A program made the translations under genes and the position numbers. Shown one piece after another: positions 7,764 to 58,950 of a stretch of DNA of 64,000 nucleotides (its first letter is position 1; each line of letters begins with the position of its first letter). The stretch comes from Anaeromyxobacter sp. (lineage in GTDB: Bacteria; Myxococcota; Myxococcia; Myxococcales; Anaeromyxobacteraceae), in NCBI GenBank assembly GCA_049840735.1, contig JASGJN010000020.1:860720-924719 (forward strand), written 5' to 3'. The notes below the pieces were generated by a model. The model saw only the letters and a program-made list of their open reading frames with translations, had not been told where the DNA came from and searched no databases.

Positions 7764-7774
7764 GGCGGGCCCTG

Positions 7775-37753: not shown

Positions 37754-39085
37754 CTAGCCCTGGCGCTGCTTCACGAGGCGGTCCAGGTTCTCGCGGATGA
37801 TCGTCTCCGCGAGCTGGGGTACCACCTCCCAGACCACGCGCTCGATCACCTCGCGGGAGGCGCTGGACAGCGCCTCGCGCAGCGCGGCCTCGCCGCCGTC
37901 GGCGCGGGCCGCGCCGGCTACTGGCGCGGGTACGGGGGCCGGCTCGGGCTGATGCCCGGTCGTCTCGGGCGGCGGCACGAACTCGTGCATCGGCGCGAGC
38001 TCGGGCGCGGCGCCCAGGTCGGTGTCCACCTCGGAGGAGGCCTCGTCGAGCGAGACGTCCAGCGCGGCGGCGTCACCCGCCTCCTCGGCCCAGCTGTCCA
38101 CGGGGGACGGCGGGGGCGGGGCGGCGAAGGGCGCGGCGGCCGGCGGCGGGGTGGCCGCCTGGCCGAGATCGAAGAACGCGTCGCGCGACGGGTGCGCCGC
38201 GGCGGGGACGGCGGCGGGGGCCGGAGCGGGCCGGGCCGGAGGCGGCGCGGCGGGCGGCGGCGCAGCCGGGCGCGGAGGCTGGGCCGGGGCGGCCGGGCGG
38301 GCCGCGGCGGGCGGGGCGCCCGGGGGCGGGCGCGCGCCGGGCGGCGGCGCGGCCGGACGCGGCGGAGCGCCGGCGGGCGGACGGGCGCCGGGGGGCGGCG
38401 CAGCCGGGCGCGGGGCGGCGCCCGGGGGCATGGCGGCGGCGGGCGGCCGGGCGCCAGGCGGCGGCGCGGCCGGGCGGGGCGCGGCGGCGGGAGCGCCAGG
38501 CGGGCGGGCGCCGGGCGGCGGCGCGGCCGGGCGCGGCGCGCCGGGCGGCGGGCCACCGGGACGGGCCGCGGCGGGAGGAGGAGCGCCGGCGGGCGGGCGC
38601 GCGCCGGGGGGCGGCGCGGCGGGACGGGGCGCAGCGGCGGCCGGGGCCACCGGGCGGGCCGCAGGGGCCGGCGCAGCGGCGGCCGGCGCGGGCGCCGGGA
38701 CGGCGACGCGGGCGCCGCGGTTCTCGACCAGCTCCTTCACCTTGTTGATGAGGGCCGCGCTCTCGAAGGGCTTGGCGATGTGGCCGTCGGCGCGGGCGGC
38801 GCGGGCGCGGGCCTCGTCGAAGGCCTCGAACGTGCCGGCCAGCAGCAGCACCGGGATGTTGGCCAGCGCCGCGTCGGACTTGATGGCCTCGCAGACCTCG
38901 TAGCCGTTCTTCCGAGGCATCACCACGTCGGCCAGGATGACGTCCGGCCGGAGCTCGCGGGCGCGGGCGATGGCGTCCTCGCCGTTGTCCACCGCGGTGA
39001 CCTTGAAGTCCTCGTTCGCGAACGTGATGCCGACGACCTTCTGGATCGTGATGGAGTCGTCCGCGAGGAGCAGGTTCTTGGGCAT
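37754..39085 (-). CDS. romR: Polarity response regulator RomR
   Basis: REC (MPKNLLLADDSITI...GTFEAFDE), Pro-rich linker and C-terminal REVIERVVWEVVPQLAETIIRE; adjacent to valS as in Myxococcus. Confidence 0.88.
   Translation of the reverse strand: MPKNLLLADDSITIQKVVGITFANEDFKVTAVDNGEDAIARARELRPDVILADVVMPRKNGYEVCEAIKSDAALANIPVLLLAGTFEAFDEARARAARADGHIAKPFESAALINKVKELVENRGARVAVPAPAPAAAAPAPAARPVAPAAAAPRPAAPPPGARPPAGAPPPAAARPGGPPPGAPRPAAPPPGARPPGAPAAAPRPAAPPPGARPPAAAMPPGAAPRPAAPPPGARPPAGAPPRPAAPPPGARPPPGAPPAAARPAAPAQPPRPAAPPPAAPPPARPAPAPAAVPAAAHPSRDAFFDLGQAATPPPAAAPFAAPPPPSPVDSWAEEAGDAAALDVSLDEASSEVDTDLGAAPELAPMHEFVPPPETTGHQPEPAPVPAPVAGAARADGGEAALREALSSASREVIERVVWEVVPQLAETIIRENLDRLVKQRQG
38250..38650 (-). 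repeat. Coding imperfect tandem repeat (PRPAAPPPGARPP-like, ~5-6 copies) in the RomR linker
   Basis: Repeated peptide visible in the translation. Confidence 0.75.
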
Positions 39086-39424: not shown

Positions 39425-40196
39425 TCACGCGCCGAACAGCGTATCCCAGGGCGGCCGGACCACGTCGCTCCCGCCCTCCCCCACCCCCAGCACGCGATCG
39501 GCGACCACGCCCACCCCGGTGCCGCCCGCGTCCACCAGCAGGACGGTCCGGGGCGGCTGGGCCGGCGGGGCGCCGTACAGGACGCCCAGGTCGATCACCG
39601 GGTGGAGGGCGCGCCCGTGGTAGAGCAGGCCGCGGTGCGAGGCCGGCGTGAGCGGCACCGGCGCCAGGCGCGGCGACTCCAGCACCTGGACCAGCAGGGA
39701 GAGCGGGACGGCGAAGAGCCTCCCGCCGCGGGCGAAGCGGAGCTCCCGCTCGGCGAAGGGGCCCAGATCCGGCGGCTCGCCTGACAGGTCCACGGCCGGC
39801 TCCAGCGGCGCGAACCCCAGGGACCCCACCGCCAGCTCCAGCGCCACCTCCCCGCGCGCCACCACCGCCCCGCTGAACGGGGTGGGTTGCGGTAGGGGGG
39901 TCGGCACGGGCAGCTGGAAGAACTCGGCGTCGGAGAGGTCCACGATGCCGTGGAGGGCCTCGACGCGGAGCGCCACCCGGGGCGTGCCTTCGGTGAGGAG
40001 CGCGAAGGGGGTCCGTCCGCCCGGCAGCCCCAGCACCGTGGAGACGAACGCCACCGGATAGCGCTCGCCGCGCGCGTCGATCTCGCCCCCGTCGGTGGGA
40101 GCGGTCACGATTCTCGCGGAGGTGGGACACGCGGAGGGCGAGTCGCACGCCGCCGGCAGAGAAGAGCAGCGCCTTGCGGTCGACGGGCTGGGCCAC
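39425..40196 (-). CDS. Tandem CheW-like domain protein, apparent frameshift at ~40110
   Basis: LFSAGGVRLAL, GLLYHGRALHPVIDL and GVVADRVLG motifs; upstream of romR. Confidence 0.75.
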
Positions 40197-40219
40197 GCCG
40201 CCATGATATACAGGTTGTG

Positions 40220-41575
40220 ATGACGCCCGCGGTCCTCCTCGTCGATGACGAGCGCTTCGCGCGGACGGTCTATTCGGATTACCTCCGGGCGGCCGGGTGC
40301 GAGGTCGAGGTGGCCCAGGACGCCGAGGCGGCCCTGGGCCTGCTGGAGCACCGGCGCTTCGACGTGCTCCTGACCGACGTGATCCTCCCCGGCTCCTCCG
40401 GGCTGGACCTGCTCACCGTGGCCAAGGGGCTCGACCCCAACCTCGAGGTGGTGGTCATCACCGCCCTCGACAAGGTGGACCCGGCGGTGCGGGCCATGAA
40501 GGCCGGCGCCAGCGACTACCTGGTGAAGCCGGTCACGCCGGAGGGGCTGCAGCTGGCCGTGCAGCGGTGCCTCTCCACCCGGGAGCTGCTGGCGGAGAAC
40601 AAGTCGCTGCGGGCCCACCTCAAGCTCTACGAGGCCGGCCAGCGCATCGCCGCCACGCTCGACCGGGACAAGCTGGTCCCGGCGGCCCTCTCGGCGGTGT
40701 GCAGCGCCTGCGGCTCGATCGCCGCGGCGCTGCTGGAGCGGACGGGCCGCGGCGAGTGGGTGCTCTCCGGGGCCCACGGCCTGGACTACGGCCCGGCGGC
40801 CGAGCTGCTGGAGCGCTGTCGCGCCTCGCTGGCCGAGCTGAAGCCGGAGGTGCCGGGCACGGTGGCGCTGCCGGGTGACGCCGGAGGCAAGGCGCTGCTC
40901 CTGCCGGTGGCCGACGAGGGGACGCTGGCGGGCGCCGTGGCGGTGCTGGTGCAGGGCGAGCTGGACGCGACGGCCCGGGAGGCGGTCGCCTTCCTGTCGC
41001 GCCACCTGGCCCTGGCGCTGCGGAACCTGGGGCGGCTGCAGCAGGTGGAGCACCTCGCCTACCTCGACGACCTCACGCACCTCTACAACACCCGCTACCT
41101 GGACCTGGCGCTGGACCGCGAGCTGGGCGGCGGCCGGCCGTTCACGGTGCTGTTCATGGACCTGGACCGCTTCAAGGCGGTCAACGACGAGCACGGCCAC
41201 CTGTCCGGCTCACGCCTGCTGGTGGAGGTGGCGCGGGTGCTGCGGGCCTGCGTCCGCGACGACGACGTGCTGGTCCGGTACGGCGGGGACGAGTACCTGG
41301 TGCTGCTGGTAGGGATCGACTCCGGCGGCGGCCTCAAGGTGGCCGAGCGGATCCGCCGGGCCATCGAGGACCACCGCTTCCTGTCCCGGGAGGGGCAGCG
41401 GGTGCGGGTCACGGCCTCCATCGGCCTGGCCAGCTTCCCCGAGCACGCCCAGGCCAAGGCCGAGATCCTCGACCTGGCCGACCGCGCCATGTACCGGGGC
41501 AAGCGGTCGAGCCGGAACGTGGTCTACATGGCCTCGCGCGACCTGCCGCCGGTGCCGGCGGGCGAGCGACCGTAG
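40220..41575 (+). CDS. Response regulator diguanylate cyclase (REC-GAF-like-GGDEF)
   Basis: REC domain; DDLTHLYN, DLDRFKAVND and RYGGDEY motifs. Confidence 0.93.
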   Translation: MTPAVLLVDDERFARTVYSDYLRAAGCEVEVAQDAEAALGLLEHRRFDVLLTDVILPGSSGLDLLTVAKGLDPNLEVVVITALDKVDPAVRAMKAGASDYLVKPVTPEGLQLAVQRCLSTRELLAENKSLRAHLKLYEAGQRIAATLDRDKLVPAALSAVCSACGSIAAALLERTGRGEWVLSGAHGLDYGPAAELLERCRASLAELKPEVPGTVALPGDAGGKALLLPVADEGTLAGAVAVLVQGELDATAREAVAFLSRHLALALRNLGRLQQVEHLAYLDDLTHLYNTRYLDLALDRELGGGRPFTVLFMDLDRFKAVNDEHGHLSGSRLLVEVARVLRACVRDDDVLVRYGGDEYLVLLVGIDSGGGLKVAERIRRAIEDHRFLSREGQRVRVTASIGLASFPEHAQAKAEILDLADRAMYRGKRSSRNVVYMASRDLPPVPAGERP

Positions 41576-41635
41576 GCGATATCGGGTCGGGTGGTGTGAC
41601 TGCCCCGGCGCGCGGCGCCGAGCGTGAGAAAGCCC

Positions 41636-41676
41636 AAAAAAACTGCGGGGCCAGGGGCTTTCGCCCTTGGCCCCGC
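41636..41676 (-). terminator. Rho-independent terminator
   Basis: GCGGGGCCAAGGGC-GAAA-GCCCCTGGCCCCGC followed by AGTTTTTTT on the minus strand. Confidence 0.85.
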
Positions 41677-41771
41677 TGACGACGACTGCCGGGTTCCGCC
41701 CTTCCAAGCACGTAGTAGCGGCTGCCCTCGTCATCGACCCACCGGCTCGCGGCGCTCACCGGTTGTCGTAT
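41636..41771 (-). ncRNA. Candidate ~135-nt small RNA
   Basis: Sigma70-like TTGACG-N18-TAGGTT (41807-41778), two predicted stem-loops, then an intrinsic terminator with a U7 tail; no credible ORF. Confidence 0.45.
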
Positions 41772-41880
41772 GTCAATAACCTACCCTGCCCGACGGGCTT
41801 CCGTCAAGCCCAAGAGCGGATCAGGGCCTGATTCCGGGCACTTGGGTTGGGAGAGGCGACCCGCCCCCCACCCGCGGGCG

Positions 41881-42964
41881 CTACTTCTTCTGGCGGTACT
41901 TGCGGATGTCGAAGGCGACGGCGGAGACGATGATGGTCCCCTTCACGATCTGCTGCCAGTAGGGGCTCAGGCCGACGAAGGTCAGGCCGTAGTTGATGAC
42001 GGTGAAGATGACCACGCCCAGCAGGATGCCGGGGATGGTCCCGATACCGCCGGTGACCGACACCCCACCCACCACGCAGGCCGCGATCGCGTCCAGCTCG
42101 TACCCCGTGCCGTAGTTGTTGGTGGCGCCGCCGGTCCGGGCCGCCTCGAGCGTGCCGGCCAGGCCATACAGGCCGCCGGCGATGGCGTACATGATCATCG
42201 TCGTCTTGGCGACGTTGATGCCCGACACGCGGGCGGCCTGCTCGTTGCCGCCCATCGCGTAGACGTTCTTGCCGAACGCCGTCTTGTTCATCAGCACCCA
42301 CATCCCCACCGCCACCACCAGGGCGATGATCACCAGGTAAGGGATGGAGTACGGCCCGGTGCCGATGGCGCCGGTGCCCAGGCTGGTGAAGTCGGACCTG
42401 AGCCCGCCGATGGGCTGCGAGTTGTTGGGCGGGGTGTCGAAGTAGATTCGAGTTCACCCCGTGCACCACCAGCATCATGCCCAGGGTGGCGATGAACGGG
42501 GCCACGCCCAGCTTGGCCACGACGAAGCCGTTGATGAAGCCGGCGATGACGCAGGCCAGCACCGCCAGGACGATGGGGACGACGAGCAGCTGCTGCGGCA
42601 TGTCCGGGTAGAAGAGCCGCAGGTAGTCCGGCGCCTGGAGCATGGACGCCGAGATCACCGCAGCGAACCCGACCATGCGCCCGGCGGACAGGTCCGCGCC
42701 GGCGGTCACGATCGCGAAGAAGGCCCCCAGCGCCACGATGGAGCGGGTGGACGACTGCATCAGCACGTCGCGCAGGGTGCCGATCGACAGGAACTCCGGC
42801 TCGAGCTTGGCGATCACGATCACCAGCAGGACCAGGGCCGTGAAGATGGCGTTGTCGGTGATGAAGCGGAGCGCGCGCCGGAGCAGGTCGTCGACCCTGG
42901 GCGCAGCAGACGGCGGCGGCGGCCCGGGCGGGGTCGAGGAGGAGTCGAGCGGGTTGATGGCCAT
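41881..42964 (-). CDS. mglC: Galactose/methyl-galactoside ABC permease, apparent frameshift at ~42450
   Basis: [30 protein letters not shown] and [13 protein letters not shown] motifs. Confidence 0.9.
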
Positions 42965-42983
42965 GGTGGAGTTCTCTCCTCGG

Positions 42984-44491
42984 CTACATGAACTGTGCGG
43001 CGAGGCGCATGATATCTCTTCCTGGCTGGCGCGCTCACCCTGGACGACGCCGGTCACCCGCCCCTCGCACATCACCATGATCCGGTCGGACATGCCGAGC
43101 AGCTCCGGCATCTCGGAGGAGATCATGATGATGCTCTTCCCCTGGCGGGCCAGCTCCGCGATGATCGTGTAGATTTCGAACTTCGGCGCCCACGTCGATG
43201 CCGCGGGTGGGCTCGTCGAGAAGGAGGATGTCCGGCTCGGTCAGCAGCCACCGCCCGAGCAGCACCTTCTGCTGGTTGCCGCCGGACAGGTCCCGGATGT
43301 GCGTCTTCACCGTGGGCGTCTTCACCCGCAGCCGCTCGACGGTGCGCAGCGCGTCCGCGCGCCGCTTCCGGTCGTTCAGCAGGCCGAAGCGGAGGTAACG
43401 GCGCTGGTTCGCGATGAGCGCGTTCTCCAGGACCGAGAGCGCCGGGAAGATGCCCGAGCCGCGGCGGTCCTCGGTGAGGAGCGCCATCCCGTGCTTCTTG
43501 GCCTGCTCCGGCGACCGGATGACGAACCGGCGCCCCTTGATTCCGATCTCGCCCCGCTGGATGGAGCGGAGGCCGAAGAGCGCCTCCACCAGCTCGGTCC
43601 GCTGCGCGCCCACCAGGCCGCCGATGCCCAGCATCTCGCCCTCGCGCAGCTCGAAGGAGACGTCCTTGAACGAGCGCGGCAGCGGGGAGGTGAGGCCGGC
43701 GACGCGCATCCGGACCGCGCCGGGGACGTTGTGGCGCTCCGGGAAGCGGTGGGTGAGGTCGCGCCCCACCATGCGGTTGATGATGGTGGCCTCGGTCAGC
43801 TCGGCGGCCGGCCAGGTGCCGACGCGCCGGCCGTCGCGCATGATGGTGACCTCGTCGGAGATGCCGGAGGATCTCCTCCATCTTGTGCGAGATGTAGATG
43901 ATGGCGCAGCCGCGCGAGCGCAGGTCGTTGATGATCCGGAACAGGTGCTCCACCTCCACCTCGGTGAGCGAGGAGGTGGGCTCGTCCATGATGATGACCT
44001 TGGACTTGAACGAGACCGCCTTGGCGATCTCCACCAGACTGGATCTTGGACAGCGAGAGGCTCCCCAGGCGCGCGGCGGGGTCGATCGTGATCCCCAGCC
44101 CCTTGAACAGGGCCGCGGTGTCCCGGTACATCGCCCGGTGATCGACGAAGGGGATGGGGCCGAGCTTCCGCTGCGGGAAGCGGCCCAGCCAGATGTTCTC
44201 CATCACGCTGCGGTGCGGGATGGGGTGCAGCTCCTGGTGGATCATCGAGATGCCGTTGTCGAGGGCCTCCTTCGGCCGGCCGATGACCAGCGGCCTGCCC
44301 TCGAGACGGATCTCGCCCCGGTCCGGGTGATAGAGCCCGAACAGGATCTTCATCAGCGTGGACTTGCCGGCGCCGTTCTCGCCCATCAAGGCGTGCACCG
44401 TCCCGGCGCGCACCGTGAGCGAGACGTCATCCAGCGCGCGGACGCCGGGGAACTCCTTCGAGATGCCGACCATCTCCAGCAGGACGCCCAA
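42984..44491 (-). CDS. mglA: Galactose ABC transporter ATPase (two NBDs), four apparent frameshifts
   Basis: [27 protein letters not shown] and [10 protein letters not shown]; frame breaks at ~44035, ~43865, ~43185 and ~43015. Confidence 0.88.
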
Positions 44492-44518
44492 GCCTAGCCT
44501 CCCTTGCTTCCCTGCGGA

Positions 44519-44546
44519 GGGCGGGGGAGCCGGAGCTCCCCCGCCC
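44519..44546. other. Intergenic hairpin between mglB and mglA (mRNA-stabilising or attenuating)
   Basis: GGGCGGGGGAGC-CGGA-GCTCCCCCGCCC, a perfect 12-bp stem. Confidence 0.6.
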
Positions 44547-44567
44547 CTGCAACACCTACGCTACGTT

Positions 44568-45551
44568 CTACATCGCGTCCTTGATGTTGTCCTTGGTGAT
44601 CGGCTTGTACGGCACCCAGACGTACTTGCCGTCGGTGATGTCGTAGCCGACGTTCTCCTTGGTCGGCTTCTGGCCCTGCGCCAGGACGTACGACAGGCTG
44701 AACGTGGCCTTGCCCTGGTTCTTGGCGTCGTTCAGCACGGTGCCGAGCATCGTGCCGTCCTTGAGGGCCTGGATGGCCGGGGCGGTGGCGTCCACGCCGA
44801 CCACCGGCATGAACTTGCCGCCCTTGAAGTAGCCGGCGGCCTTGAGGGCCTCGATGGCGCCGAGGGCCATGTCGTCGTTGTTGGCGAACACGACCTCGAT
44901 GTTCTTGTGGGCGCCGAGGAAGGCGGACATCTTCTCCTGGCCCTTCACGCGATCCCACATGCCGGTGTCCTCGGCCAGCTTCTCGACCTTGAGGCCGGCG
45001 TCGGTGAGCGCCTTGATGGAGAACTTGGTGCGGAGCTCGGCGTCCTGGTGGCCCGGCTCACCCTTGAGCATGACGTACTGGATGACGCCGTCCTTGTTCA
45101 GGTCGGCCTCGGGGTGCTTCTTCCAGTAGTCCACCACCAGCTGGCCGGCCATGGTGCCGGACTGCTCGGCGACGGCGCCGACGTAGTAGGCCTTGTCGTA
45201 CTTGGCCATGTCGTCCTTGAACGGCTCGCGGTTGAAGAACACCACCGGGATGCCGGCCGCCTGGGCCTTCTGGACGATCACGCCCGCCGCCGCCCGGTCG
45301 ACCGGGTTGATGGCGATGGCGTTCATCTTCTTGTTGAGGAACAGGTCGATCTTCTCGTTCTGGGTGGCCTGCTGGTTCTGCGAGTCGACCATGTCGACCT
45401 TGGCCTTGCCCTTGGCCGCGTCGGTGATGGCGTTGCGGACGCCGGTCATGAACGTGTCGTCGTACTTGTAGATGGCGACGCCGATCTTCGGCTCAGCGGC
45501 CTGCGCCACGCCGGCGATCAGAAGCCCGAACAGCGCGATGCTCTTCTTCAT
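44568..45551 (-). CDS. mglB: D-galactose/glucose-binding periplasmic protein
   Basis: IYKYDDTFM, DLNKDGVIQYV, LKGEPGHQDA and ANNDDMALGA motifs. Confidence 0.94.
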   Translation of the reverse strand: MKKSIALFGLLIAGVAQAAEPKIGVAIYKYDDTFMTGVRNAITDAAKGKAKVDMVDSQNQQATQNEKIDLFLNKKMNAIAINPVDRAAAGVIVQKAQAAGIPVVFFNREPFKDDMAKYDKAYYVGAVAEQSGTMAGQLVVDYWKKHPEADLNKDGVIQYVMLKGEPGHQDAELRTKFSIKALTDAGLKVEKLAEDTGMWDRVKGQEKMSAFLGAHKNIEVVFANNDDMALGAIEALKAAGYFKGGKFMPVVGVDATAPAIQALKDGTMLGTVLNDAKNQGKATFSLSYVLAQGQKPTKENVGYDITDGKYVWVPYKPITKDNIKDAM

Positions 45552-45645
45552 CTGACTTCCTCCTGGTGACGACTGCGGTTCGAAGGCACTTCCCTGTACG
45601 ACGGTCCTCCGGCGCCCGATGGTCCGCGCCGGCCCCTGCTACGAC

Positions 45646-46833
<1,188 letters not shown>

Positions 46834-46877
46834 GGCGTCCTCCCGTCGTGCACGCGCGCCCTCCCGCCCGTGATCAG

Positions 46878-47642
46878 CTAGACCAGCCTGATCTCGAGCC
46901 CCTTCTCGCGCAACGCGCGCACGACCTCGGGATTGGCCCCCCGGTCGGTGATGAGCAGGTCGACCTCGTGCAGCTCCGCGTACTTCGCCAGCGCCACCTT
47001 GCCGACCTTGGTCGAGTCGGCCAGCACCACCCGCCGCCGCGCCGCCCTCACGAACAGCGCCTTGATCTCGGCCTCGGCCACGTTGACGTTGGAGACGCCG
47101 TGCTCGGCGTCGATCCCGTTGGCGCCCAGGAAGGCGATGTCCGCCCGCAGCCGGGAGAGGATCAGCTCGCCGAAGGGGTTCACCAGCGAGTGCTGCTTGG
47201 CGCGCAGCGTGCCGCCGGTCACCACCGTGGTGGCCTCCGGATCGCCCTCGAGGATCGCGGCGATGTTGAGCCCGTTGGTGAAGACGGTGGGGCGCTTGCG
47301 CGCGGCCACCAGCTTGCGGGCGGCCTCGGTGACCGTGGTGCCCACGTCGAGGATGACCGTGTCGCCGGGGGAGAGCAGCTCCACCGCGGCCTCGCCGATG
47401 CGCTCCTTCTCCGGGTGGTGGGCCGTCTCTTCGACCTGGAACGGCCGCTCCAGCCCCATCTTCCGGACCAGGATGGCGCCGCCGTGCGTTCGCCGGAGCA
47501 GGCCGTCGCCCTCGAGCACGTCGAGGTCCTGGCGGATCGTGACCTCCGAGACCTCCAGCTGCTTCGCGAGATCAGCCACCAGGCAGCGCCCGTGGCGCTC
47601 CAGGGTCACCAATATCTCGCGGCGCCGCTCCTCGGGAAACAC
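46878..47642 (-). CDS. DeoR/AgaR-family transcriptional repressor
   Basis: VSEVTIRQDL HTH, RTHGGA, LDVGTT and LADSTK motifs. Confidence 0.93.
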   Translation of the reverse strand: MFPEERRREILVTLERHGRCLVADLAKQLEVSEVTIRQDLDVLEGDGLLRRTHGGAILVRKMGLERPFQVEETAHHPEKERIGEAAVELLSPGDTVILDVGTTVTEAARKLVAARKRPTVFTNGLNIAAILEGDPEATTVVTGGTLRAKQHSLVNPFGELILSRLRADIAFLGANGIDAEHGVSNVNVAEAEIKALFVRAARRRVVLADSTKVGKVALAKYAELHEVDLLITDRGANPEVVRALREKGLEIRLV

Positions 47643-47674
47643 CGGCCGCTCCTTTCCCTTCGACGATGAGCGGC

Positions 47675-47830
47675 CTTCTACGTCTGCTTTCGTTTAGCGT
47701 CAATCATTAACGATCGAAGCCCCTTTTCGTTACGTTATGGTCCAGTCAGTACGCCATTGGGGTTACATCAGCGTCTACCTGGCGTCGAAAATGAAAGCAG
47801 CGACAACCCCGGGAGCCGTAGATCTTTCGA
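47675..47830 (-). promoter_or_regulatory. Sigma70-like promoter of the gal operon with candidate DeoR/AgaR operator repeats
   Basis: TTGACG-N17-TAGAAG (47703-47675); several TTTCR motifs, including CTTTCATTTTCG (47797-47786); AT-enriched region. Confidence 0.5.
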
Positions 47831-47899
47831 CATCGAGAACGAATCGCGAAACCGGAGCGGTCCCGAGGACTTGGGACAGAGGCCGGAGGCGGGGCTCCG

Positions 47900-49129
47900 T
47901 CACCGGTCACACCCCAAGGGCGCACGCGCTGGAGCAAGTGAAGGCGAGAGGGAGGGGGAGAGGGAGGGCACGAAGGCCGCCATCTTCTCGCGCCCGTAGG
48001 TCTGCACCGCCGCCCAGAGGTTATGTCCCCGGCAACGGAGCCGAAGGTTGGCGGCGGTGGGCAGCCCGCCCATCGCCTCCGGGTCGATGTGGTCCAGCTC
48101 CAGCTGCCAGCGGCTGCAGCAGCGGCGGCCGTCCGGGGAGACGTAGGTGCAGCAGCCGCCATCGCGCGCCCAGACTTCGCGGCGAACGACGGCCGTGACG
48201 GTGCGAGGGTCGAAGCGGTACGCGGTGGCGAAGAGCGGGAGCGGGTCAGTGGAGGGAACCGTGACCGGAACCGGCGCGGAGAGCGTCGCCGGCTTCGAGT
48301 CCTCGGGCGCAGCAGCAGCGGGAGCCTCCGCCTTGTTCAGCTCCACCGCCCCCTTTCGCTTGGCGTGCTTCTCCACGGCGCACCGGAGCGCCTCCTTGAG
48401 CACGTCGGCCAGGTTGCCGTCGGGCACCTTGTGGGAGAGGAGTTCACGGAGCGTCTCGAGGTCAGCGTGCGCCGCCTCGTCGAGCGTGACGCGCATCGAC
48501 CACTGCTCCGCGTTCACCGGGTGAAGCTCGGGGCGGCTGGGGACAGGGGTGGGCGCCGAGAGCGCGAAGGCGGGCTCCGAGGAAACGGCCGGCTCCTGAG
48601 GCTGGGACGGAGCCGCCTCGACCGGCGCGGTCACCAGTGCAGTCGCACCCGTTGGATCCACCGGACGAGGCTGGGAGGCGGCAGGGGGCGTAGAAGGGAG
48701 CCGACGCACCCCGTTCTTCGGCGCCTCGCGGGGCTTGAGGGTCACCACCAGCCGCTCCACCTCGGCCTTGGACTTGAAGGCGGCGCCTCCGACCAGCTCC
48801 TCCAGGTTCTCCTCGGTCAGCACATCGCGCAGCATCCCCAGCGTGGAGAGCGAGAGCCTACCCTCGCGCAGCGGCGCCTCGAGGGAGGGGAACCGGGACA
48901 GCAGCCGCATGGCCGTGATGCGGCGGTAGGCGCCGTCCTCGGAGAGGTGGAGCACCTCCCGGCAGTAGGCCCAGAGCGACGGGTAGCCCTGCTCCAGGTA
49001 GAGCTTCCGCCGCTCCACCTCCGCCAGCACCAGCAGGAGCCCGACCTTGATGCCGCGCTCGTCCGAGGCGAGAGCGTGCAGCCGGGCGATGAGGGAGCTG
49101 TTGTCGAGCACATCGAGTCGGGCGTTCAT
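47900..49129 (-). CDS. HNH endonuclease-domain protein, 409 aa
   Basis: ATG after GGAGGT; C-terminal VRREVWARDGGCC...C...LELDHIDP..MGG...ANLRLRCRGHN; ~130-aa helical N-terminal domain and a Pro/Ala linker. Confidence 0.9.
   Translation of the reverse strand: MNARLDVLDNSSLIARLHALASDERGIKVGLLLVLAEVERRKLYLEQGYPSLWAYCREVLHLSEDGAYRRITAMRLLSRFPSLEAPLREGRLSLSTLGMLRDVLTEENLEELVGGAAFKSKAEVERLVVTLKPREAPKNGVRRLPSTPPAASQPRPVDPTGATALVTAPVEAAPSQPQEPAVSSEPAFALSAPTPVPSRPELHPVNAEQWSMRVTLDEAAHADLETLRELLSHKVPDGNLADVLKEALRCAVEKHAKRKGAVELNKAEAPAAAAPEDSKPATLSAPVPVTVPSTDPLPLFATAYRFDPRTVTAVVRREVWARDGGCCTYVSPDGRRCCSRWQLELDHIDPEAMGGLPTAANLRLRCRGHNLWAAVQTYGREKMAAFVPSLSPSLSPSLAPARAPLGCDR
47911..47941 (+). repeat. Isolated 31-bp copy of the 41-bp array unit inside the HNH gene 3' end
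   Basis: ACCCCAAGGGCGCACGCGCTGGAGCAAGTGA is identical to array positions 49586-49616. Confidence 0.92.
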
Positions 49130-49412
49130 TGGCGTGCACCTCCAGCAGAGGACGCCATCGTAAGCCTGGTTTTCGAGGTGCTCGCCGAGGCCCCTGGCGC
49201 CGCCCAGGAGGCGAGATTCTCGCGAGCCCATCTCCGCTCCCCCACGCGCCTCCCCGCGCGCCCAGGAGATCACGCAGAGCGTTGCAGGAGAGGCGTTTCC
49301 GGCGGAGCCGCGCCGCGGAAGCCGCGCCGCGCCAAATTCACGTCAAGCAAAATCCGGCGAAGGCCGCGAGACGCCCCACTTGCTCCAGCGGCGGCGTTTC
49401 ACGGCGCCTGGG

Positions 49413-49459
49413 CTTCGACTCCGCGAGCCCTGCGGGCTCGCTACGCTCAGCCCGAACGG
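49413..49459 (+). repeat. Family A REP-like palindrome
   Basis: CTTCGACTCC-GCGAGCCC-TGC-GGGCTCGC-TACGCTCAGCCCGAACGG. Confidence 0.8.
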
Positions 49460-49506
49460 ATCCTCAACGTCATCAGCAATGACTTGACCCCATCCCGGCT
49501 CTTCCT

Positions 49507-49982
49507 CCAAGGGCGCACGCGCTGGAGTAAGTGACTCCCAGCTGGCCCTAAGGGCGCACGCGCTGGAGCAAGTGACTCCCAGTTGACCCCAAGGGCGCAC
49601 GCGCTGGAGCAAGTGACTCCCAGTTGACCCCAAGGGCGCACGCGCCGGAGCAAGTAACTCCCAGTTGGCCCCAAGGGCGCACGCGCTGGAGTAAGTGACT
49701 CCCCGTTAACCCCAAGGGCGCACGCGCTGGAGCAAGCAACTCTCAGTCGACCCCAAGGGCGCACGCGCTGGAGCAAGTAGCTCTCAGTCGACCCCAGGGG
49801 CGCACGCACTGGAGCAAGTAACTCTCAGTTGACCCCAAGGGCGCACGCGCTGGAGTAAGTGACTCTCAGTTGACTCCAAGGGCGCACGCGCTGGAGTAAG
49901 TAACTCTCAGTTGACCCCAAGGGCGCACGCGCTGGAGCAAGTGACTCCCAGTTGACTCCAAGGGCGCACGCGCTGGAGTAAG
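49507..49982. repeat. Tandem array of 41-bp units: 11 full units plus a terminal 25-bp core
   Basis: Unit starts at 49507, 49548, 49589, 49630, 49671, 49712, 49753, 49794, 49835, 49876, 49917 and 49958; consensus CCAAGGGCGCACGCGCTGGAGYAAG-TRACTCYCAGTTGACC. Confidence 0.95.
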
Positions 49983-50001
49983 CGCAAACAAGAATGACCT
50001 G

Positions 50002-50472
50002 CCCCCTCCCCGTCCCCTCTCCCCCTCCCCGTCCCCCTCCCCGTCCCCTCTCCCCGTCCCCTCTCCCCGTCCCCTCTCCCCGTCCCCTCTCCCCGTCCCC
50101 TCTCCCCGTCCCCTCTCCCCGTCCCCTCTCCCCGTCCCCTCTCCCCGTCCCCTCTCCCCGTCCCCTCTCCCCGTCCCCTCTCCCCGTCCCCCCTCCCCGT
50201 CCCCCCTCCCCGTCCCCCCTCCCCGTCCCCCCTCCCCGTCCCCCCTCCCCGTCCCCCCTCCCCGTCCCCCCTCCCCGTCCCCCCTTCCCCGTCCCCCCTC
50301 CCCGTCCCCCCTCCCCGTCCCCCCTCCCCGTCCCCCCTCCCCGTCCCCCCTCCCCGTCCCCCCTCCCCGTCCTCCTCCCCGTCCTCCTCCCCGTCCTCCT
50401 CCCCGTCCCTCTCCCCGTCCCTCTCCCCGTCCCTCTCCCCGTCCCCGTCCCCAGCCCCCTCTCCCCGTCCCT
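50002..50472. repeat. 12-13-bp C-rich/G-rich minisatellite (CCCCGTCCCCTCT and variants)
   Basis: About 35 units; the plus strand has no A for ~450 bp. Confidence 0.92.
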
Positions 50473-50628
50473 CAGCACGGCCCCGGCCACAGGCGCGGGG
50501 CGCAGGGGGCCCCCCGCGCCCTGTACCGACGGCAGCGCCAAGCACGGCAGCGCCAACCACGCCACCGCCAACCGCCCCACCCCACACGCAAGAAGGGCCG
50601 AAGCCGCCACCGGCCCCGGCCCCCTTCA

Positions 50629-52362
<1,734 letters not shown>

Positions 52363-52493
52363 CTAACCGCCGCCCGGTGCCGGTCAAGCGACCGCCGGAG
52401 GGCGCTCCGGACACGCTCCGTCAGTGAACTCCGTCGCGTCCCTCCGCCCCCCGCCGGGGTGGGGCTGCGCGTTGACAACCCGGGGCGAACGCG

Positions 52494-53585
52494 GTGACCT
52501 CGCCGCCCATGCGAGGGCGGGACGTGCGCGGCAGGGGAGCGGAGCTCGAGCGGTTGCTGGAGGTCGCCGCCGAGGCCTACGAGGCAGGCCGGCTGGAGGA
52601 GGCGCTGGCGCGGGCCGAGGAGGCGCTCCGAGCCGAGCCGCGGGCGGTCGCAGCCCTGCACTACCGGGCGGCCTCGCTGGCCGGACTGGGGCACCAGGAG
52701 GAAGCGCGCCAGGCCTACGCCACGGCCCTGCGCCAGGACCGGGACGACCTCGACCTGCTGGCGGGCGCGGCCGACTTCCTGCTCAACGGCCTCGGCGATG
52801 ACGAGGCGGAGCGGGTCGATCTGGAGGAGGCGCTGGCGCTGGCCGAGCGCGGGAGCAAGCTTTCGCGCAAGGCCCGCGCGCCCGACCGCCAGGCCGAGTT
52901 CGCCTGGCTGGAGGGGGTGGCGCTCAACCAGCTGGGCCAGCCGGAGGAGGCGCTGGCGCGGCTGGCGGTGGCGGAGCGCGAGGGGCCGCAGGTGGACGTG
53001 CTGCTGGAGAAGGGCTTCGCGCTCCACGAGCTGTCCCGGTTCGACGAGGCGCACGCGGCGCTGGCGGCGGCCGAGGCGCTGGACCCCGAGGACGCGTGGA
53101 TCCAGCACACGCTGGGGCTGGTGGCCGAGCGGCGCGGCGCGGCCGAGGAGGCCCGGCAGCGGTTCGCGCGCGCCCGCCGGCTCTCGCCGGACGAGTTCCC
53201 GAAGCCGGTGGCGCTCTCCCAGGCCGCCTTCGACGCCGCCGTGGAGGACGCGCTGACGGACCTCCCCGAGCCGGTGCGCCGTTACCTGGCCAACGTGGCC
53301 ATCACGGTGGAGGACCTGCCCAGCGACGACGACCTGCGGGGCTCCGACCCGCCGCTCTCGCCCGCCATCCTGGGGCTGTTCCGCGGCGCGCCTTACGGCC
53401 AGAAGGCCTCCATGGACCCCTGGAGCCACTTCCCGTCGTCGATCGTGCTCTACCAGAAGAACCTGGAGCGGTTCGCCCGCAGCCGCACCGAGCTGATCGA
53501 GCAGATCGGCGTGACCCTCATCCACGAGGTGGGCCACTTCCTCGGGCTGGACGAGGACGAGCTGTACGAGCGGGGGCTGGAGTGA
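52494..53585 (+). CDS. TPR plus zincin-like metallopeptidase (DUF1025-like)
   Basis: TPR helices; ILGLFRG, IVLYQKNL and HEVGHFLG motifs. Confidence 0.85.
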   Translation: MTSPPMRGRDVRGRGAELERLLEVAAEAYEAGRLEEALARAEEALRAEPRAVAALHYRAASLAGLGHQEEARQAYATALRQDRDDLDLLAGAADFLLNGLGDDEAERVDLEEALALAERGSKLSRKARAPDRQAEFAWLEGVALNQLGQPEEALARLAVAEREGPQVDVLLEKGFALHELSRFDEAHAALAAAEALDPEDAWIQHTLGLVAERRGAAEEARQRFARARRLSPDEFPKPVALSQAAFDAAVEDALTDLPEPVRRYLANVAITVEDLPSDDDLRGSDPPLSPAILGLFRGAPYGQKASMDPWSHFPSSIVLYQKNLERFARSRTELIEQIGVTLIHEVGHFLGLDEDELYERGLE

Positions 53586-53597
53586 GCGGGCCCCTGG

Positions 53598-53705
53598 CCT
53601 TCGACTCCGGGCCCGCCTTCGGCGTGCCCTACGCTCAGGCCGAACGGCGTGGTCTTCCGTTCACCCTGAGCGTAGCCGCGGCGCCGCCGCGGCGGAGTCA
53701 AAGGG
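53598..53705. repeat. Inverted pair of family A REP-like palindromes
   Basis: CCTTCGACTCC...CTACGCTCAGGCCGAACGG (53598-53647) faces CCGTTCACCCTGAGCGTAG...GAGTCAAAGGG (53657-53705). Confidence 0.85.
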
Positions 53706-53729
53706 CGCCGGCGCGCCGCCGCGCGCGGC

Positions 53730-54182
53730 CTACGCCACCAGCTTCTCGAACACCTCGCGCACGTAGTCGAGCGGGCCGGGGGCGGCGGCCGGCGCCTGCT
53801 GGGCGCGGAGCCGCGCGATCCAGGCGGCGCAGGCCGCGCACTCGCGCGCCTCGTGGACGACCGGCGGCGTCCGCACCGCGCCGGTGCGGGCGATGGCCCG
53901 GAGCCGGAGCAGCTGGTCGGGCTCGTCGAGCAGGCAGCGGGCGGGCGCGCCGGTCGCGGTCAGGCCGTGGCGGAGCGGGAGGACCGCGGAGCGGCGCGCG
54001 GGGATCGACCCGTCCTCGGCCAGGTCCTCGCGCGGCGGGGCGCTGAGGATGGCGCGCAGCCACCACGGGCCGTCGGGCGGCCGCGGACCGGCGTCCAGCT
54101 CCTCCCCCAGGAACTCGGAGTGCGGGCGGGGTTCGACGGTGGCGATGGTGGGGATGAGCGAACCGGCGTCGTGGGGGAACAT
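53730..54182 (-). CDS. Hypothetical protein with Cys/His cluster
   Basis: GGAGG before MFPHDAG; C...HEARECAAC motif. Confidence 0.55.
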   Translation of the reverse strand: MFPHDAGSLIPTIATVEPRPHSEFLGEELDAGPRPPDGPWWLRAILSAPPREDLAEDGSIPARRSAVLPLRHGLTATGAPARCLLDEPDQLLRLRAIARTGAVRTPPVVHEARECAACAAWIARLRAQQAPAAAPGPLDYVREVFEKLVA

Positions 54183-54526
54183 GTGCGGACCCCTCCAGGT
54201 CCTGGGGGCCGCGAGGTGCGCGGCCGCCCACCCGTAGAGCATCGCGCGTGCCACCGAGGGCCGCTGCGACCGTTTGGTGCCCGAGCGCTCGCGTGGCGGG
54301 CGGTTGTGCCCCTCGGGCGCCTGGTCGCCTCTCCGGCGGGGTGCATCGGCCCATTCGCACTGTCACCGTCGCGAGACAGGTGCCGCCCGACGCATCCCTC
54401 GCCCCGAGGACACCGCCGCGCCACACCCTGTGGATTTCTTCAGCTGGGCCTGCCCGCGAGCCGCGCTGGGAGCGGAAACCGGCCGAGAAATTGACCTGTT
54501 GGGACCGATATCGGATGGTCGCCGGA

Positions 54527-56956
<2,430 letters not shown>

Positions 56957-56967
56957 GCGAGGCGCCC

Positions 56968-57813
56968 ATGGGCCGCTCGGCGATGGTGATCGGCGCAGGC
57001 CGCCTCGCCTCGGCGCTCGTGCCGGGCCTCCGCGCGGCGGGCCTGGAGGTGGCCGGCGTGGCGCGATCCAAGGCGGGCCGGGCCCGGCTGCGCAGGCTGG
57101 GCGCCCGCCCGGCCGCGCTGGCCGAGGCCTCCGCCCACGCCCTGGTGCTGCTGGCGGTCCCGGACGGCGCGGTGGCCGAGGCGGCGGCGGCGCTGGCCCC
57201 GCACCTGCGCCGCGGGCAGGTGGTGGCGCACGGGGCCGGGGCGCTGGGGCTCGAGCCGCTGGCGCCGGTGCGGGCGCGCGGGGCGCACCCGGGCTCGCTC
57301 CACCCGGTGCAGGCGCTGGCCGGTGGCCCCTTCGCGCCCGGGACCGTGGCCGCGGTGGACGGCGATCCGGCCGCGCGCCGGAGGCTGCGCGCGCTGGCCC
57401 GCGCGCTCGGGCTGCGCCCCATCGCCGTGCCGGCGGCGGGCCGCGTCGGGTACCACGCCGCGGCGGTGATCGCCTCCAACCTGACGCTGGCCCTGTTCGA
57501 CCTGGCCTGCCAGGCCTGGGCCGAGGCCGGCGCGCCGCCCGCCGAGGCGGCCCGGGCGCTCTTGCCGCTGCTGCGCGGCACGGTGGAGAACCTGGCCGCG
57601 CGCGGGCTCCCCGGCGCGCTGACCGGCCCGGCCTCGCGCGGCGACGCGGCGGTGGTGGCGCGGCAGGCGGCGGCGCTGCAGGGGGAGCCGGGAGCGGCGT
57701 ACCGGCTGCTCACCCGCCGGCTGGTGGCGCTGGCGCGGCGGGGCGGGCTGCCCGAGGCGCGCGCGGCGGCGGTGCTGCGGGCGCTGGCCCCGCCGCGGCG
57801 GGGGCGGCGGTGA
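56968..57813 (+). CDS. Rossmann-like/DUF2520 oxidoreductase (PanG-like)
   Basis: IGAGRL, LAVPDG, HPVQ, YHAAAVIASN and LTGPASRGD motifs. Confidence 0.85.
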   Translation: MGRSAMVIGAGRLASALVPGLRAAGLEVAGVARSKAGRARLRRLGARPAALAEASAHALVLLAVPDGAVAEAAAALAPHLRRGQVVAHGAGALGLEPLAPVRARGAHPGSLHPVQALAGGPFAPGTVAAVDGDPAARRRLRALARALGLRPIAVPAAGRVGYHAAAVIASNLTLALFDLACQAWAEAGAPPAEAARALLPLLRGTVENLAARGLPGALTGPASRGDAAVVARQAAALQGEPGAAYRLLTRRLVALARRGGLPEARAAAVLRALAPPRRGRR

Positions 57814-58950
57814 GCGAGCAGGGCCGCCGCCTCCGCGAGCTGGCCGGGCTCTTCCTGCGGCTGGGCGCCACCGCCTTCGGAGGTCCCGCCGCCCACATCG
57901 CGCTCATGGAGGACGAGGTGGTGCGCCGGCGCGGGTGGCTCACCCGCGAGGAGCTGCTGGACCTGCTGGGCGCCTGCAACCTCATCCCCGGCCCCAACTC
58001 AACCGAGCTGGCCATCCACATCGGCCACCGGCGCGCCGGCTTCCCGGGCCTGCTGGTGGCTGGGGCCTGCTTCATCCTCCCGGCGGCGCTGATCGTCACC
58101 GGCCTGGGTTGGCTGTATGTCGCCGCCGGAGGGTTGCCTGCGCTGGGCGGCGTGCTGCGCGGGGTGAAGCCGGTGGTGCTGGCGGTGGTGCTGCAGGCGC
58201 TGCTCGGCTTCGCGCGCACCGCGCTGCGCGGGCCGGCCGCCTGGGCGCTGGCGCTGGCCGCCGCTGCGGCCGCGGCCGTGGGGGTGGACGAGCTCCTGGT
58301 GCTGGGGGCCAGCGGCGCCCTGGCCCTGGCGCTCTCCCGCCGCCGCGGTGGCCGCGCCGGCGCCGCCGCGCTCCCGCTGGCCACCGCCCTCGCCCCCGCG
58401 GCCGGCGCGCTGCCGGTCCCCTTCGGCCTCTCCACGCTGTTCCTCACCTTCCTCAAGATCGGCTCGGTCCTGTTCGGCAGCGGGTACGTGCTGCTGGCCT
58501 TCCTCCGCGCCGATCTCGGTGGAGCGGCTGGGCTGGCTCACCGAGGCCCAGCTGCTCGACGCGGTGGCCGTGGGCCAGGTGACCCCGGGGCCGGTCTTCA
58601 CCACCGCCACGTTCGTGGGCTACCTGCTGGGCGGCGGCGTGGGCGCGGCGGTGGCCACCGCCGGCATCTTCCTGCCCGCCTTCGTCTTCGTGGCGCTGTC
58701 CGGGCCGCTGGTCCCGCGCCTGCGCCGCTCGCCGGCGGCGGGCGCGGTGCTGGACGGCGTCAACCTGGCCTCGCTGGCCCTCATGGCGGTGGTGACGGCG
58801 CGGCTGGCGGCCCCGGTGCTGGTCGACCCTCTGGGCCTGGGGCTCTTCGCGGTCTCGGTCCTGCTGCTGCTGCGGCTGCGCTGGAGCTCGAGCTGGCTGG
58901 TGCTGGGCGGAGCCGTCCTGGGGGCGCTGCTGGCCATGCTGGGCGCGTGA
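57810..58950 (+). CDS. chrA: Chromate ion transporter (CHR family), apparent frameshift at ~58517
   Basis: GATAFGGP, PGPNSTE, FGSGY and GQVTPGP motifs. Confidence 0.9.

Follow-up and report, generated by a model that had tools for sequence, protein, structure and literature searches.

HNH repeats of the REP13E12 type are described, in the part of the source that was available, without a defined function, and the REP13E12 loci are counted there among the strongest gene-conversion hot spots of Mycobacterium tuberculosis, with 87 events (PMC13061034). Here, we characterize a locus from Anaeromyxobacter sp. in which a gene for an HNH nuclease lies beside an array of 41-bp repeats. The stretch analysed, hereafter the window, is 64,000 nucleotides long (contig JASGJN010000020.1 of assembly GCA_049840735.1, positions 860,720–924,719 of the forward strand); unprefixed coordinates refer to it. 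A preceding sequence-only reading had taken the locus for a stand-alone nuclease coupled to a repeat–spacer array, and had offered three roles for the array: (a) a source of short RNAs loaded by the nuclease, (b) a set of sites that the nuclease binds or cuts, or (c) the amplified footprint of a selfish element. Our analysis favours the last of these: gene and array very probably belong to a selfish element whose array acts at the level of DNA. In addition, host genes next to copies of the element have lost C on one strand. A literature search, with most subscription papers and supplements outside its reach, returned no description of the family, the array or the footprint.

The gene does not stand alone. 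The genome contains 12 full-length copies (74–100% identical), a thirteenth with an internal deletion, and two distant relatives. The core of the array's repeat unit closes all 13 copies at the right end, and 12 of the 13 hold 1–12 further cores upstream (12, 10, 4, 3, 2, 2, 1, 1, 1, 4, 0, 5 and 2 upstream cores per gene copy); 41-bp arrays are present at eight. Genome-wide there are 64 core matches, 58 of them at the 13 gene copies and six at four left modules that lack an open reading frame (ORF). Within the window, the 21-nt core has 13 matches, against 0.01 expected. The proposed link in sequence between repeat and gene thus holds across the genome, while the array itself is not conserved among homologues; option (c) is supported.

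The element is ~2–2.7 kb long and lies just behind host-gene stop codons. In the direction of the gene, its order is host stop codon, hairpin, G-rich tract, core(s), a palindrome resembling repetitive extragenic palindromes (REPs; in most copies), a TTGAC site, leader, ORF and core. The features of the copy in the window, including a variable-number tandem repeat (VNTR) and regions encoding predicted helix-turn-helix (HTH) and ribbon-helix-helix (RHH) domains, are as follows.

47900–49129, minus strand: HNH gene of the multi-copy element (HTH, RHH and HNH), a 409-aa ORF.
47911–47941, unstranded: core copy at the right end, inside the ORF where its C-terminal tail is poorly conserved; found in all 13 copies.
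47978–48214, minus strand: predicted zinc-binding HNH domain, residues 306–384; fold Z 7.4, catalytic residues retained.
48332–48547, minus strand: RHH-like domain, residues 195–266; folded separately, predicted local distance difference test (pLDDT) 84.8.
48737–49102, minus strand: N-terminal helical domain, residues 10–131; ParB/KorB/Spo0J-like HTH fold, weak DUF222 match.
48936–49029, minus strand: stretch of six sites that track the core variant, ORF nt 100–193; seen among 12 paralogues.
49137–49145, minus strand: Shine-Dalgarno-like GGAGG, called from sequence and kept among paralogues.
49341–49350, minus strand: TTGAC site, conserved in the family, ~215 nt 5' of the ORF; a matching -10 box was not found.
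49377–49390, unstranded: 14-bp inverted match to the 41-bp unit.
49410–49459, unstranded: REP-like palindrome, member of a genome-wide family that is independent of the gene.
49507–49982, unstranded: 41-bp array of 12 cores and 11 near-identical 16-bp segments, a probable amplified end motif.
49994–50005, minus strand: GGTCAT-containing motif, with a second occurrence across the array at 49479–49491.
50020–50471, unstranded: 13-bp VNTR, 35 copies, G-rich on the sense strand of the gene.
50492–50520, unstranded: left-end hairpin with compensatory changes in the stem, shared by all 13 copies; folding z -3.97.
50646–50828, minus strand: 3' end of the host gene groEL, its synonymous sites shifted towards G; the footprint, outside the element.

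The REP-like palindrome, the 13-bp VNTR and the hairpin are all part of the same element as the gene and the array. The compensatory changes in the hairpin stem comprise T-A, A-T and C-G pairs. Sizeable VNTRs occupy the left part of nine of the 13 copies, each with its own unit (periods 5–31). Most copies have a co-oriented gene before them and a convergent gene after, and in 11 of 13 the sense strand is the regionally G-rich one (by a rough 120-kb skew). The palindrome also exists as a separate family of several hundred copies around the genome, with window positions 7774, 11348, 11429, 49410 and 53657. Neither a sigma-70 promoter nor an intrinsic terminator was called in 47600–50700. There are 11 left modules without an ORF in the genome, and the genome core scan found no lone right ends. 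Recombination from core to core was considered as the origin of these solo modules and is ruled out for C11 and C13, which retain the left-side continuation and the REP.

In many particulars, the first description of the array was accurate. The array lies 377 bp from the gene, has a period of 41 over 11.6 copies with 0% indels, and starts and stops on a core; the longest exact match between gene end and array is indeed 31 bp (47911–47941), and the inverted 14-bp copy is where it was reported. Twelve cores are present as counted, although the exact 25-mer given for them occurs in nine of the 12. What does not hold is the layout of repeats and spacers: the 16-bp segments share a mean pairwise identity of 81% (range 62–100%), and 28 of the 29 differences from their consensus are transitions (11 full units). 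Pooled across the genome, the segments of 35 array units fall into 21 different sequences, and four of these appear unchanged at more than one locus. Segments that are alike, and that are shared between loci, are not spacers, and a CRISPR-type guide array was rejected on these grounds. The arrays also differ between copies: the three most similar cassettes hold 12, 10 and 4 cores, and arrays of cassettes 5–6% diverged show no in-register match. The GGTCAT motif follows the element as well, with 13 of 15 exact genome matches to its 12-mer at element or solo sites.

Beyond this genome, the array disappears. In 91 relatives of the same taxonomic family, the 21-nt core has 0–1 matches each, against 58 here, and the four single matches are at the level of the reversed control. 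Metagenomes gave 81 matches, all single, and the family gene was present at none of the 85 loci examined (the 81 plus the four singletons from family genomes); a search of viral contigs with a paralogue found no relative. Among sequencing runs, a single DNA run was listed (share 0.06) and no RNA run, and the pieces obtained from it were short and unrelated. A long direct repeat shared by the left and right ends was seen in one of 24 genomes, the present one (one locus each, after 12 of 36 loci had been dropped for a missing N-terminus or a short flank), and the expectation that homologues would carry arrays of their own was not borne out. The array is therefore not obligatory in a conserved nuclease–repeat system. 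One candidate trace of the core, an 11-nt piece at +153 in all four G012 copies, was discarded as not above chance for a single paralogous family (a rough estimate). We conclude that the array is a lineage-specific by-product and that the prospect of a new RNA-guided system is low.

The other signature of the element lies outside it. The 150 bp bordering the hairpin on the left have a GC skew of +0.38 at 11 full copies and +0.25 at 11 solo modules, against +0.02 at 335 REP-like palindromes away from elements, which served as controls (these counts omit copies E03 and E07, the hairpin profile having found 11 of 13 full copies). The skew fades by 300–450 bp, and the right flank shows none. It follows the strand of the element even where the neighbouring gene points away (E07; solos), and when the 300-bp clusters of the genome are ranked by skew, 17 of the top 43 fall at element or solo sites. 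Across 14 co-oriented neighbouring genes, the proportion of G at 4-fold sites, counted from the stop codon in successive 90-bp bins, is 0.79, 0.65 and 0.57, against a background of 0.50, 0.47 and 0.47. AGR codons account for 14 of 68 arginine codons in the same genes (p 7e-5), while C>T is not clearly raised (12/144 against ~6%, p 0.2). The 3' end of groEL, the host gene here, has G at 32 of 37 4-fold sites (99.8th percentile), and its last 300 scored columns differ from orthologues by 15 C>G and six G>C changes. The loss of C is real and one-sided, and falls on the sense strand of the element.

The same footprint was found at five of five copies in genome G006. On the G006 branch, two genes show 16 and 13 C>G changes against two and two G>C (29 and four in total), and in the last 50 codons element-free orthologues have 39–58% G, against 84–89% in G006; the changes map to the element-bearing lineage. 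A third locus, L073, had too few outgroups to be included. With a fixed window, a skew of at least 0.2 was recorded in four of 24 genomes. G006 also allows cassettes to be compared at fixed sites. At two sites orthologous between G006 and G002, cassette divergence is 9–36% per 150-bp bin, compared with mostly 1–6% in the distant flanks; other relatives have no element at these sites, and for one G006 copy (locus L134) the site is empty in G008, where the two flanking genes abut. The closest relative of a copy shifts along the cassette. Element copies are thus mosaic, and at orthologous sites the cassette is far more diverged than its surroundings.

The nuclease itself appears to be a single encoded protein that is guided by protein domains. 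Its AlphaFold model (409 aa, pLDDT 80.6) has three domains. Residues 23–133 align with ParB/KorB DNA-binding domains (Z 6.9; for the ParB DNA-binding domain 6s6h, root-mean-square deviation 2.9 over 96 aligned residues), the middle domain on its own best matches NikR (Z 5.2, most of 50 rows being RHH proteins), and residues 299–384 align with HNH nucleases. The HNH call of the sequence-only reading is upheld by this fold (Z 7.4); the Pfam HNH match is below cut-off (E=0.086). PF01844 is matched by 48 of 92 homologues. H347, H369 and N370 are each retained in 91 of 92 homologues and N361 in 74; taken with the zinc residues, retention spans 74–92 of 92. DUF222 scores 16.1 bits against a cut-off of 24.4, and 6 of 92 homologues match it at E<=0.001. 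Foldseek gave no match at E<=0.001 for the whole-protein or middle-domain model, Pfam and NCBIfam scans of the protein revealed no transposase domain (DDE, HUH, Ser or Tyr), and no PADLOC anti-phage family matched at E<=0.01. Among paralogues, the ratio of non-synonymous to synonymous changes (pN/pS, a simple count) is 0.19–0.36 across the three domains and 0.82 in the linker, demonstrating purifying selection on the domains; the core-bearing tail is poorly aligned among homologues. The protein belongs to a large family, with 17,178 clusters at 50% identity; members were found in 81 of the 91 genomes from the same taxonomic family, with up to 26 matches. One named homologue is from Anaeromyxobacter, and the ESM Atlas returned only hypothetical HNH clusters.

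A candidate recognition site for this protein emerges from the paralogues. Among 12 of them, the right-end core occurs in two variants (five and seven copies), and the variant is tracked by six nucleotide sites, all within ORF nt 100–193. Outside the core, no further informative site follows it. One of the 792 possible groups of five attains six tracking sites. The residues that differ are 34, 43, 47, 55, 63 and 65; positions 63 and 65 fall where the second HTH helix begins. The variant groups break up mid-gene, where the gene is mosaic, and left and right core variants agree in 10 of 12 copies (one mixed, one discordant). Recognition between protein and DNA, if preserved through recombination, would produce such co-variation, and we consider it probable that the HTH reads the core. 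This gives indirect support to the binding-site part of option (b).

The upstream region suggests where the repeat came from. A TTGAC lies at about -175 to -226 from the ORF in 18 of 24 genomes, and leader length is conserved at 175–215 nt. The heart of the 16-bp segment occurs at most 70 bp upstream of the TTGAC at 12 of the 27 loci compared from the family, whereas 3 of the 202 control windows contain it. Two distant loci (L022 and L026) have shorter palindromic repeats at both ends. We infer that the 41-bp unit derives from the left-end site of the family, was copied to both ends and was amplified in this lineage.

The explanation that we prefer, with moderate confidence and little more, is a selfish nuclease element of a REP13E12-like kind that spreads by cut and repair, the array being an amplified end or binding site. 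Under this proposal, the HTH would bind the core, and the HNH domain would nick or cut at or beside the left-end sites. The break would then be repaired from another copy of the element, filling or swapping cassettes by a homing-like gene conversion; I-HmuI is a free-standing HNH homing endonuclease. A left-end cut repaired from another copy would leave mosaic or swapped cassettes, and would restrict tandem gains to the left part, where recurrent rounds of repair at the break end would misalign, giving the 41-bp array here and a different VNTR at most copies. Error-prone synthesis at the same end would produce C>G and C>A changes in the host gene, tapering off over ~300 bp, and damage would be seen on the left side only because the DNA to the right of the break is cassette, and is overwritten. 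The array would be a binding or end site that this lineage has amplified, not a source of guides, and would probably also damp the activity of the element. That cut and repair caused both array and footprint is close to an even call, leaning slightly towards no. As to the polymerase, dnaE2 is present in this genome, and G:C to C:G changes dependent on ImuB/ImuC have been reported in UV-treated Caulobacter, as far as the available part of that paper goes (PMC3901139); a link between DnaE2 and the footprint is a suggestion by analogy.

Several observations weigh against this account. Genome G002 has elements at the same sites as G006, yet no C>G excess since the split (six C>G, eight G>C), and copies in G007, G011 and G012 lack the footprint (4-fold G 0.32–0.55; nine genes were found for 15 loci). 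Even without an element, the G008 site has a fairly high G content (22/32), and two of nine full copies and three of five solos with a called neighbour (5/14) are not outliers. The gene dnaE2 also occurs in G007 and G012, which show no footprint, and the available text of a second Caulobacter paper gives no support for a role of ImuC in spontaneous C>G mutation (PMC7198004). The link between HTH and core depends on one division of related copies, which a single ancestral haplotype might also explain; the test of the 16-bp heart is partly post hoc, and alignments of the whole unit to relatives score no better than those of the reversed unit (best 38 against 36). Fold Z-scores of 5–7 are modest, in a range that the search tool calls common, and the RHH call reflects the agreement of most rows. 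The copies in G007 and G012 end in inverted repeats, pointing to a transposase rather than to homing. Finally, binding, cutting and movement are predicted from sequence and models, and the proposal leaves the route to a wholly new site unexplained.

Those inverted repeats lend themselves to an unlikely but substantial alternative, in which a non-autonomous element resembling an insertion sequence is moved in trans by a separate transposase that acts through a hairpin or through inverted repeats at the ends, the HNH gene rides along or serves as a maintenance nuclease, and the array and VNTRs are neutral slippage of G-rich DNA. A 12-nt motif of the G007/G012 ends has the gene in its locus at 20 of 26 matches (five of the six others are cut by contig ends), and the hairpin with its compensatory changes, the 11 ORF-less left modules and six matches to Y1 transposases in the genome fit such a mover. 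In the copy of the window, the inverted match is the internal one of 14 bp. However, none of the six Y1 matches lies at a core or hairpin site, and their flanks differ. Target-site duplication is not clear either (6.9 nt for a copy's own ends against 6.2 nt for cross-pairs, no excess, with the left end ill defined and one copy unscored), and the co-variation of HTH and core and the divergence of cassettes at fixed sites are left unexplained. It is less probable again that selection retains the array as an iteron-like sequence, either a sink for the nuclease or an operator through which its gene is repressed. The period of 41 bp (about four helical turns of DNA) without indels, the two predicted DNA-binding folds, a unit containing a family-conserved motif, and the 12, 10 and 4 cores of the most similar cassettes would suit this idea; 0–12 copies among intact genes, arrays out of register between cassettes 5–6% diverged, relatives without arrays and the expansion of unrelated VNTRs in the same region tell against it.

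Three further explanations are more improbable still. The G shift could reflect selection on RNA, or a choice of sites next to G-rich gene ends, by an ordinary repeated gene with no active cutting. The lack of a clear rise in C>T is odd for single-strand damage, genes preceding control REPs are slightly shifted (median 0.54) and the empty G008 site is G-rich, all of which favours this; it is opposed by the low G of element-free orthologues, by the placing of the changes on the element-bearing lineage, and by a skew that keeps to the element's strand. A slightly slimmer chance is given to option (a), an array transcribed and cut to ~41-nt RNAs that load the HNH protein in a CRISPR-, TIGR- or OMEGA-like manner. 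In its favour are the cores bounding the array on both sides, an HNH domain similar to those of IscB and Cas9, and the conserved leader length. IscB combines a RuvC with an HNH domain, and a RuvC fold is absent among the fold matches listed. So is Nop, which has no Pfam match in the protein or its homologues, the modelled domains being otherwise assigned; no RNA-binding fold of another kind was seen in the model searches. Unique spacers are wanting, and the two 16-bp segments tested have no match beyond arrays. Folding of two units resembles that of shuffles (z -0.5 and -0.9), 12 leaders show no covariation (term +0.97), Rfam has no match at E<=1 across 41000–52500, and relatives have no array. 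The least probable explanation is that the array length is an assembly artefact: frameshifts elsewhere in the window speak for it, while units that differ by substitutions without indels, and arrays with other variants on other contigs, speak against it.

Returning to the cut-and-repair element, the analysis provides two handles on REP13E12-type function: a candidate recognition site with a natural pair of protein variants, and a footprint in host genes that can be measured. The value of the locus lies in this recognition-site lead and the footprint, rather than in the array as a source of guides. If the nuclease causes the footprint, a selfish element would be steering the local codon usage and the protein ends of core genes such as groEL. 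More tentatively, and with doubt outweighing belief, the family may be a very large self-spreading class without a transposase, in which one ParB-HTH/RHH/HNH protein reads its own end motif and swaps copies by cut and repair, acting in some lineages as a fixed, strand-specific mutator of neighbouring 3' ends and breeding arrays of binding sites.

The surroundings of the locus, and some other repeats of the genome, showed features of their own. ORFs were listed for 40000–58000, and six window proteins were scanned; the neighbours of the HNH gene are DeoR, galactokinase, a sugar-binding protein and GroEL (Cpn60). A galactose-type cluster (DeoR regulator, galactokinase, sugar-binding protein, ABC parts) occupies 41800–47700, directly past the right end of the element, and is possibly an island that the element borders. 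In genomes G002, G006, G009 and G012, a conserved non-coding stretch of ~110 nt directly follows groEL; here it lies ~9 kb off (~41640–41760, minus strand), has no Rfam match, and the element and the galactose cluster occupy the gap. The frameshifts mentioned above, in groEL (~51120) and in sugar ABC genes (42300–44500), are probably assembly indels. Low-complexity coding-type repeats (12-bp, G/C-rich) at 34618–34781 and 38210–38690 are unrelated to the element. Elsewhere, a second repeated non-coding element of ~330 bp (C20:593074-593583 and ~14 other places, in tandem at C26:40848-42066) adjoins two solo left modules. A 16-bp palindrome occurs at seven sites (C13:763971, C17:152779, C20:224265, C21:353088, C26:552593, C26:12775 and C26:476049), one upstream of a distant family gene, one near dnaE2 and two within solo modules. 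Three near-identical Y1-like genes with common flanks (C7:245373, C12:95822 and C2:170779) constitute another multi-copy element, and C25:131000-154000 contains many strongly G-skewed windows in a differing sequence style, perhaps foreign or a contaminant.

How, then, does the element compare with known systems? REP/REPIN/BIME sequences with their RAYT genes, as far as the available text describes them (PMC3116915), are likewise extragenic, with palindromes, tandem arrays and mosaic clusters by a nuclease gene. Unlike in that system, the element here has no HUH/Y1 domain, its gene is itself multi-copy, and its core is not scattered, all 64 matches being at element or left-module sites. TIGR-TasH, in the accessible part of its description, also places an HNH protein beside an array of 5–15 short units (PMC12045711), but there edge repeats alternate with loop repeats, and the variable spacers, two in number, measure 8–12 nt, in contrast to the one unit type here; Nop is absent from the Pfam matches and from the fold matches listed. 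IscB/OMEGA in IS200/IS605 resembles the element in having an HNH domain within a multi-copy element, a long non-coding leader and, by the portion of the source available, a nuclease that may maintain the element by recombination (PMC10690162); the match to the IscB model is confined to residues 315–370 (14.5 bits against a cut-off of 175, the HNH part only), with no RuvC and no structured-RNA signal seen here. The element thus falls outside the CRISPR, TIGR-array, IscB and RAYT systems, and below the DUF222 cut-off.

Two likenesses are closer. With free-standing HNH homing endonucleases such as T4 MobE, judged by the available text (PMC2790892), the element shares a DNA-binding domain fused to HNH and, putatively, spread by a break or nick followed by gene conversion; it differs in having many dispersed chromosomal copies rather than one allele, and in a motif kept at both ends. 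With the REP13E12/DUF222-HNH genes of M. tuberculosis, in so far as the accessible parts of the sources go (PMC10589994, PMC13061034), it shares a dispersed multi-copy gene, a DUF222-like N-terminus, a C-terminal HNH, the lack of a transposase domain, strong conversion among copies and an undefined function. The sub-threshold DUF222 match sets it apart from these genes, as does the RHH; end-motif arrays, co-variation of HTH and motif and a one-sided loss of C go unmentioned in those parts of the sources. By analogy, the element appears to work in the manner of repeated HNH genes of the REP13E12 type, or in that of free-standing homing endonucleases.

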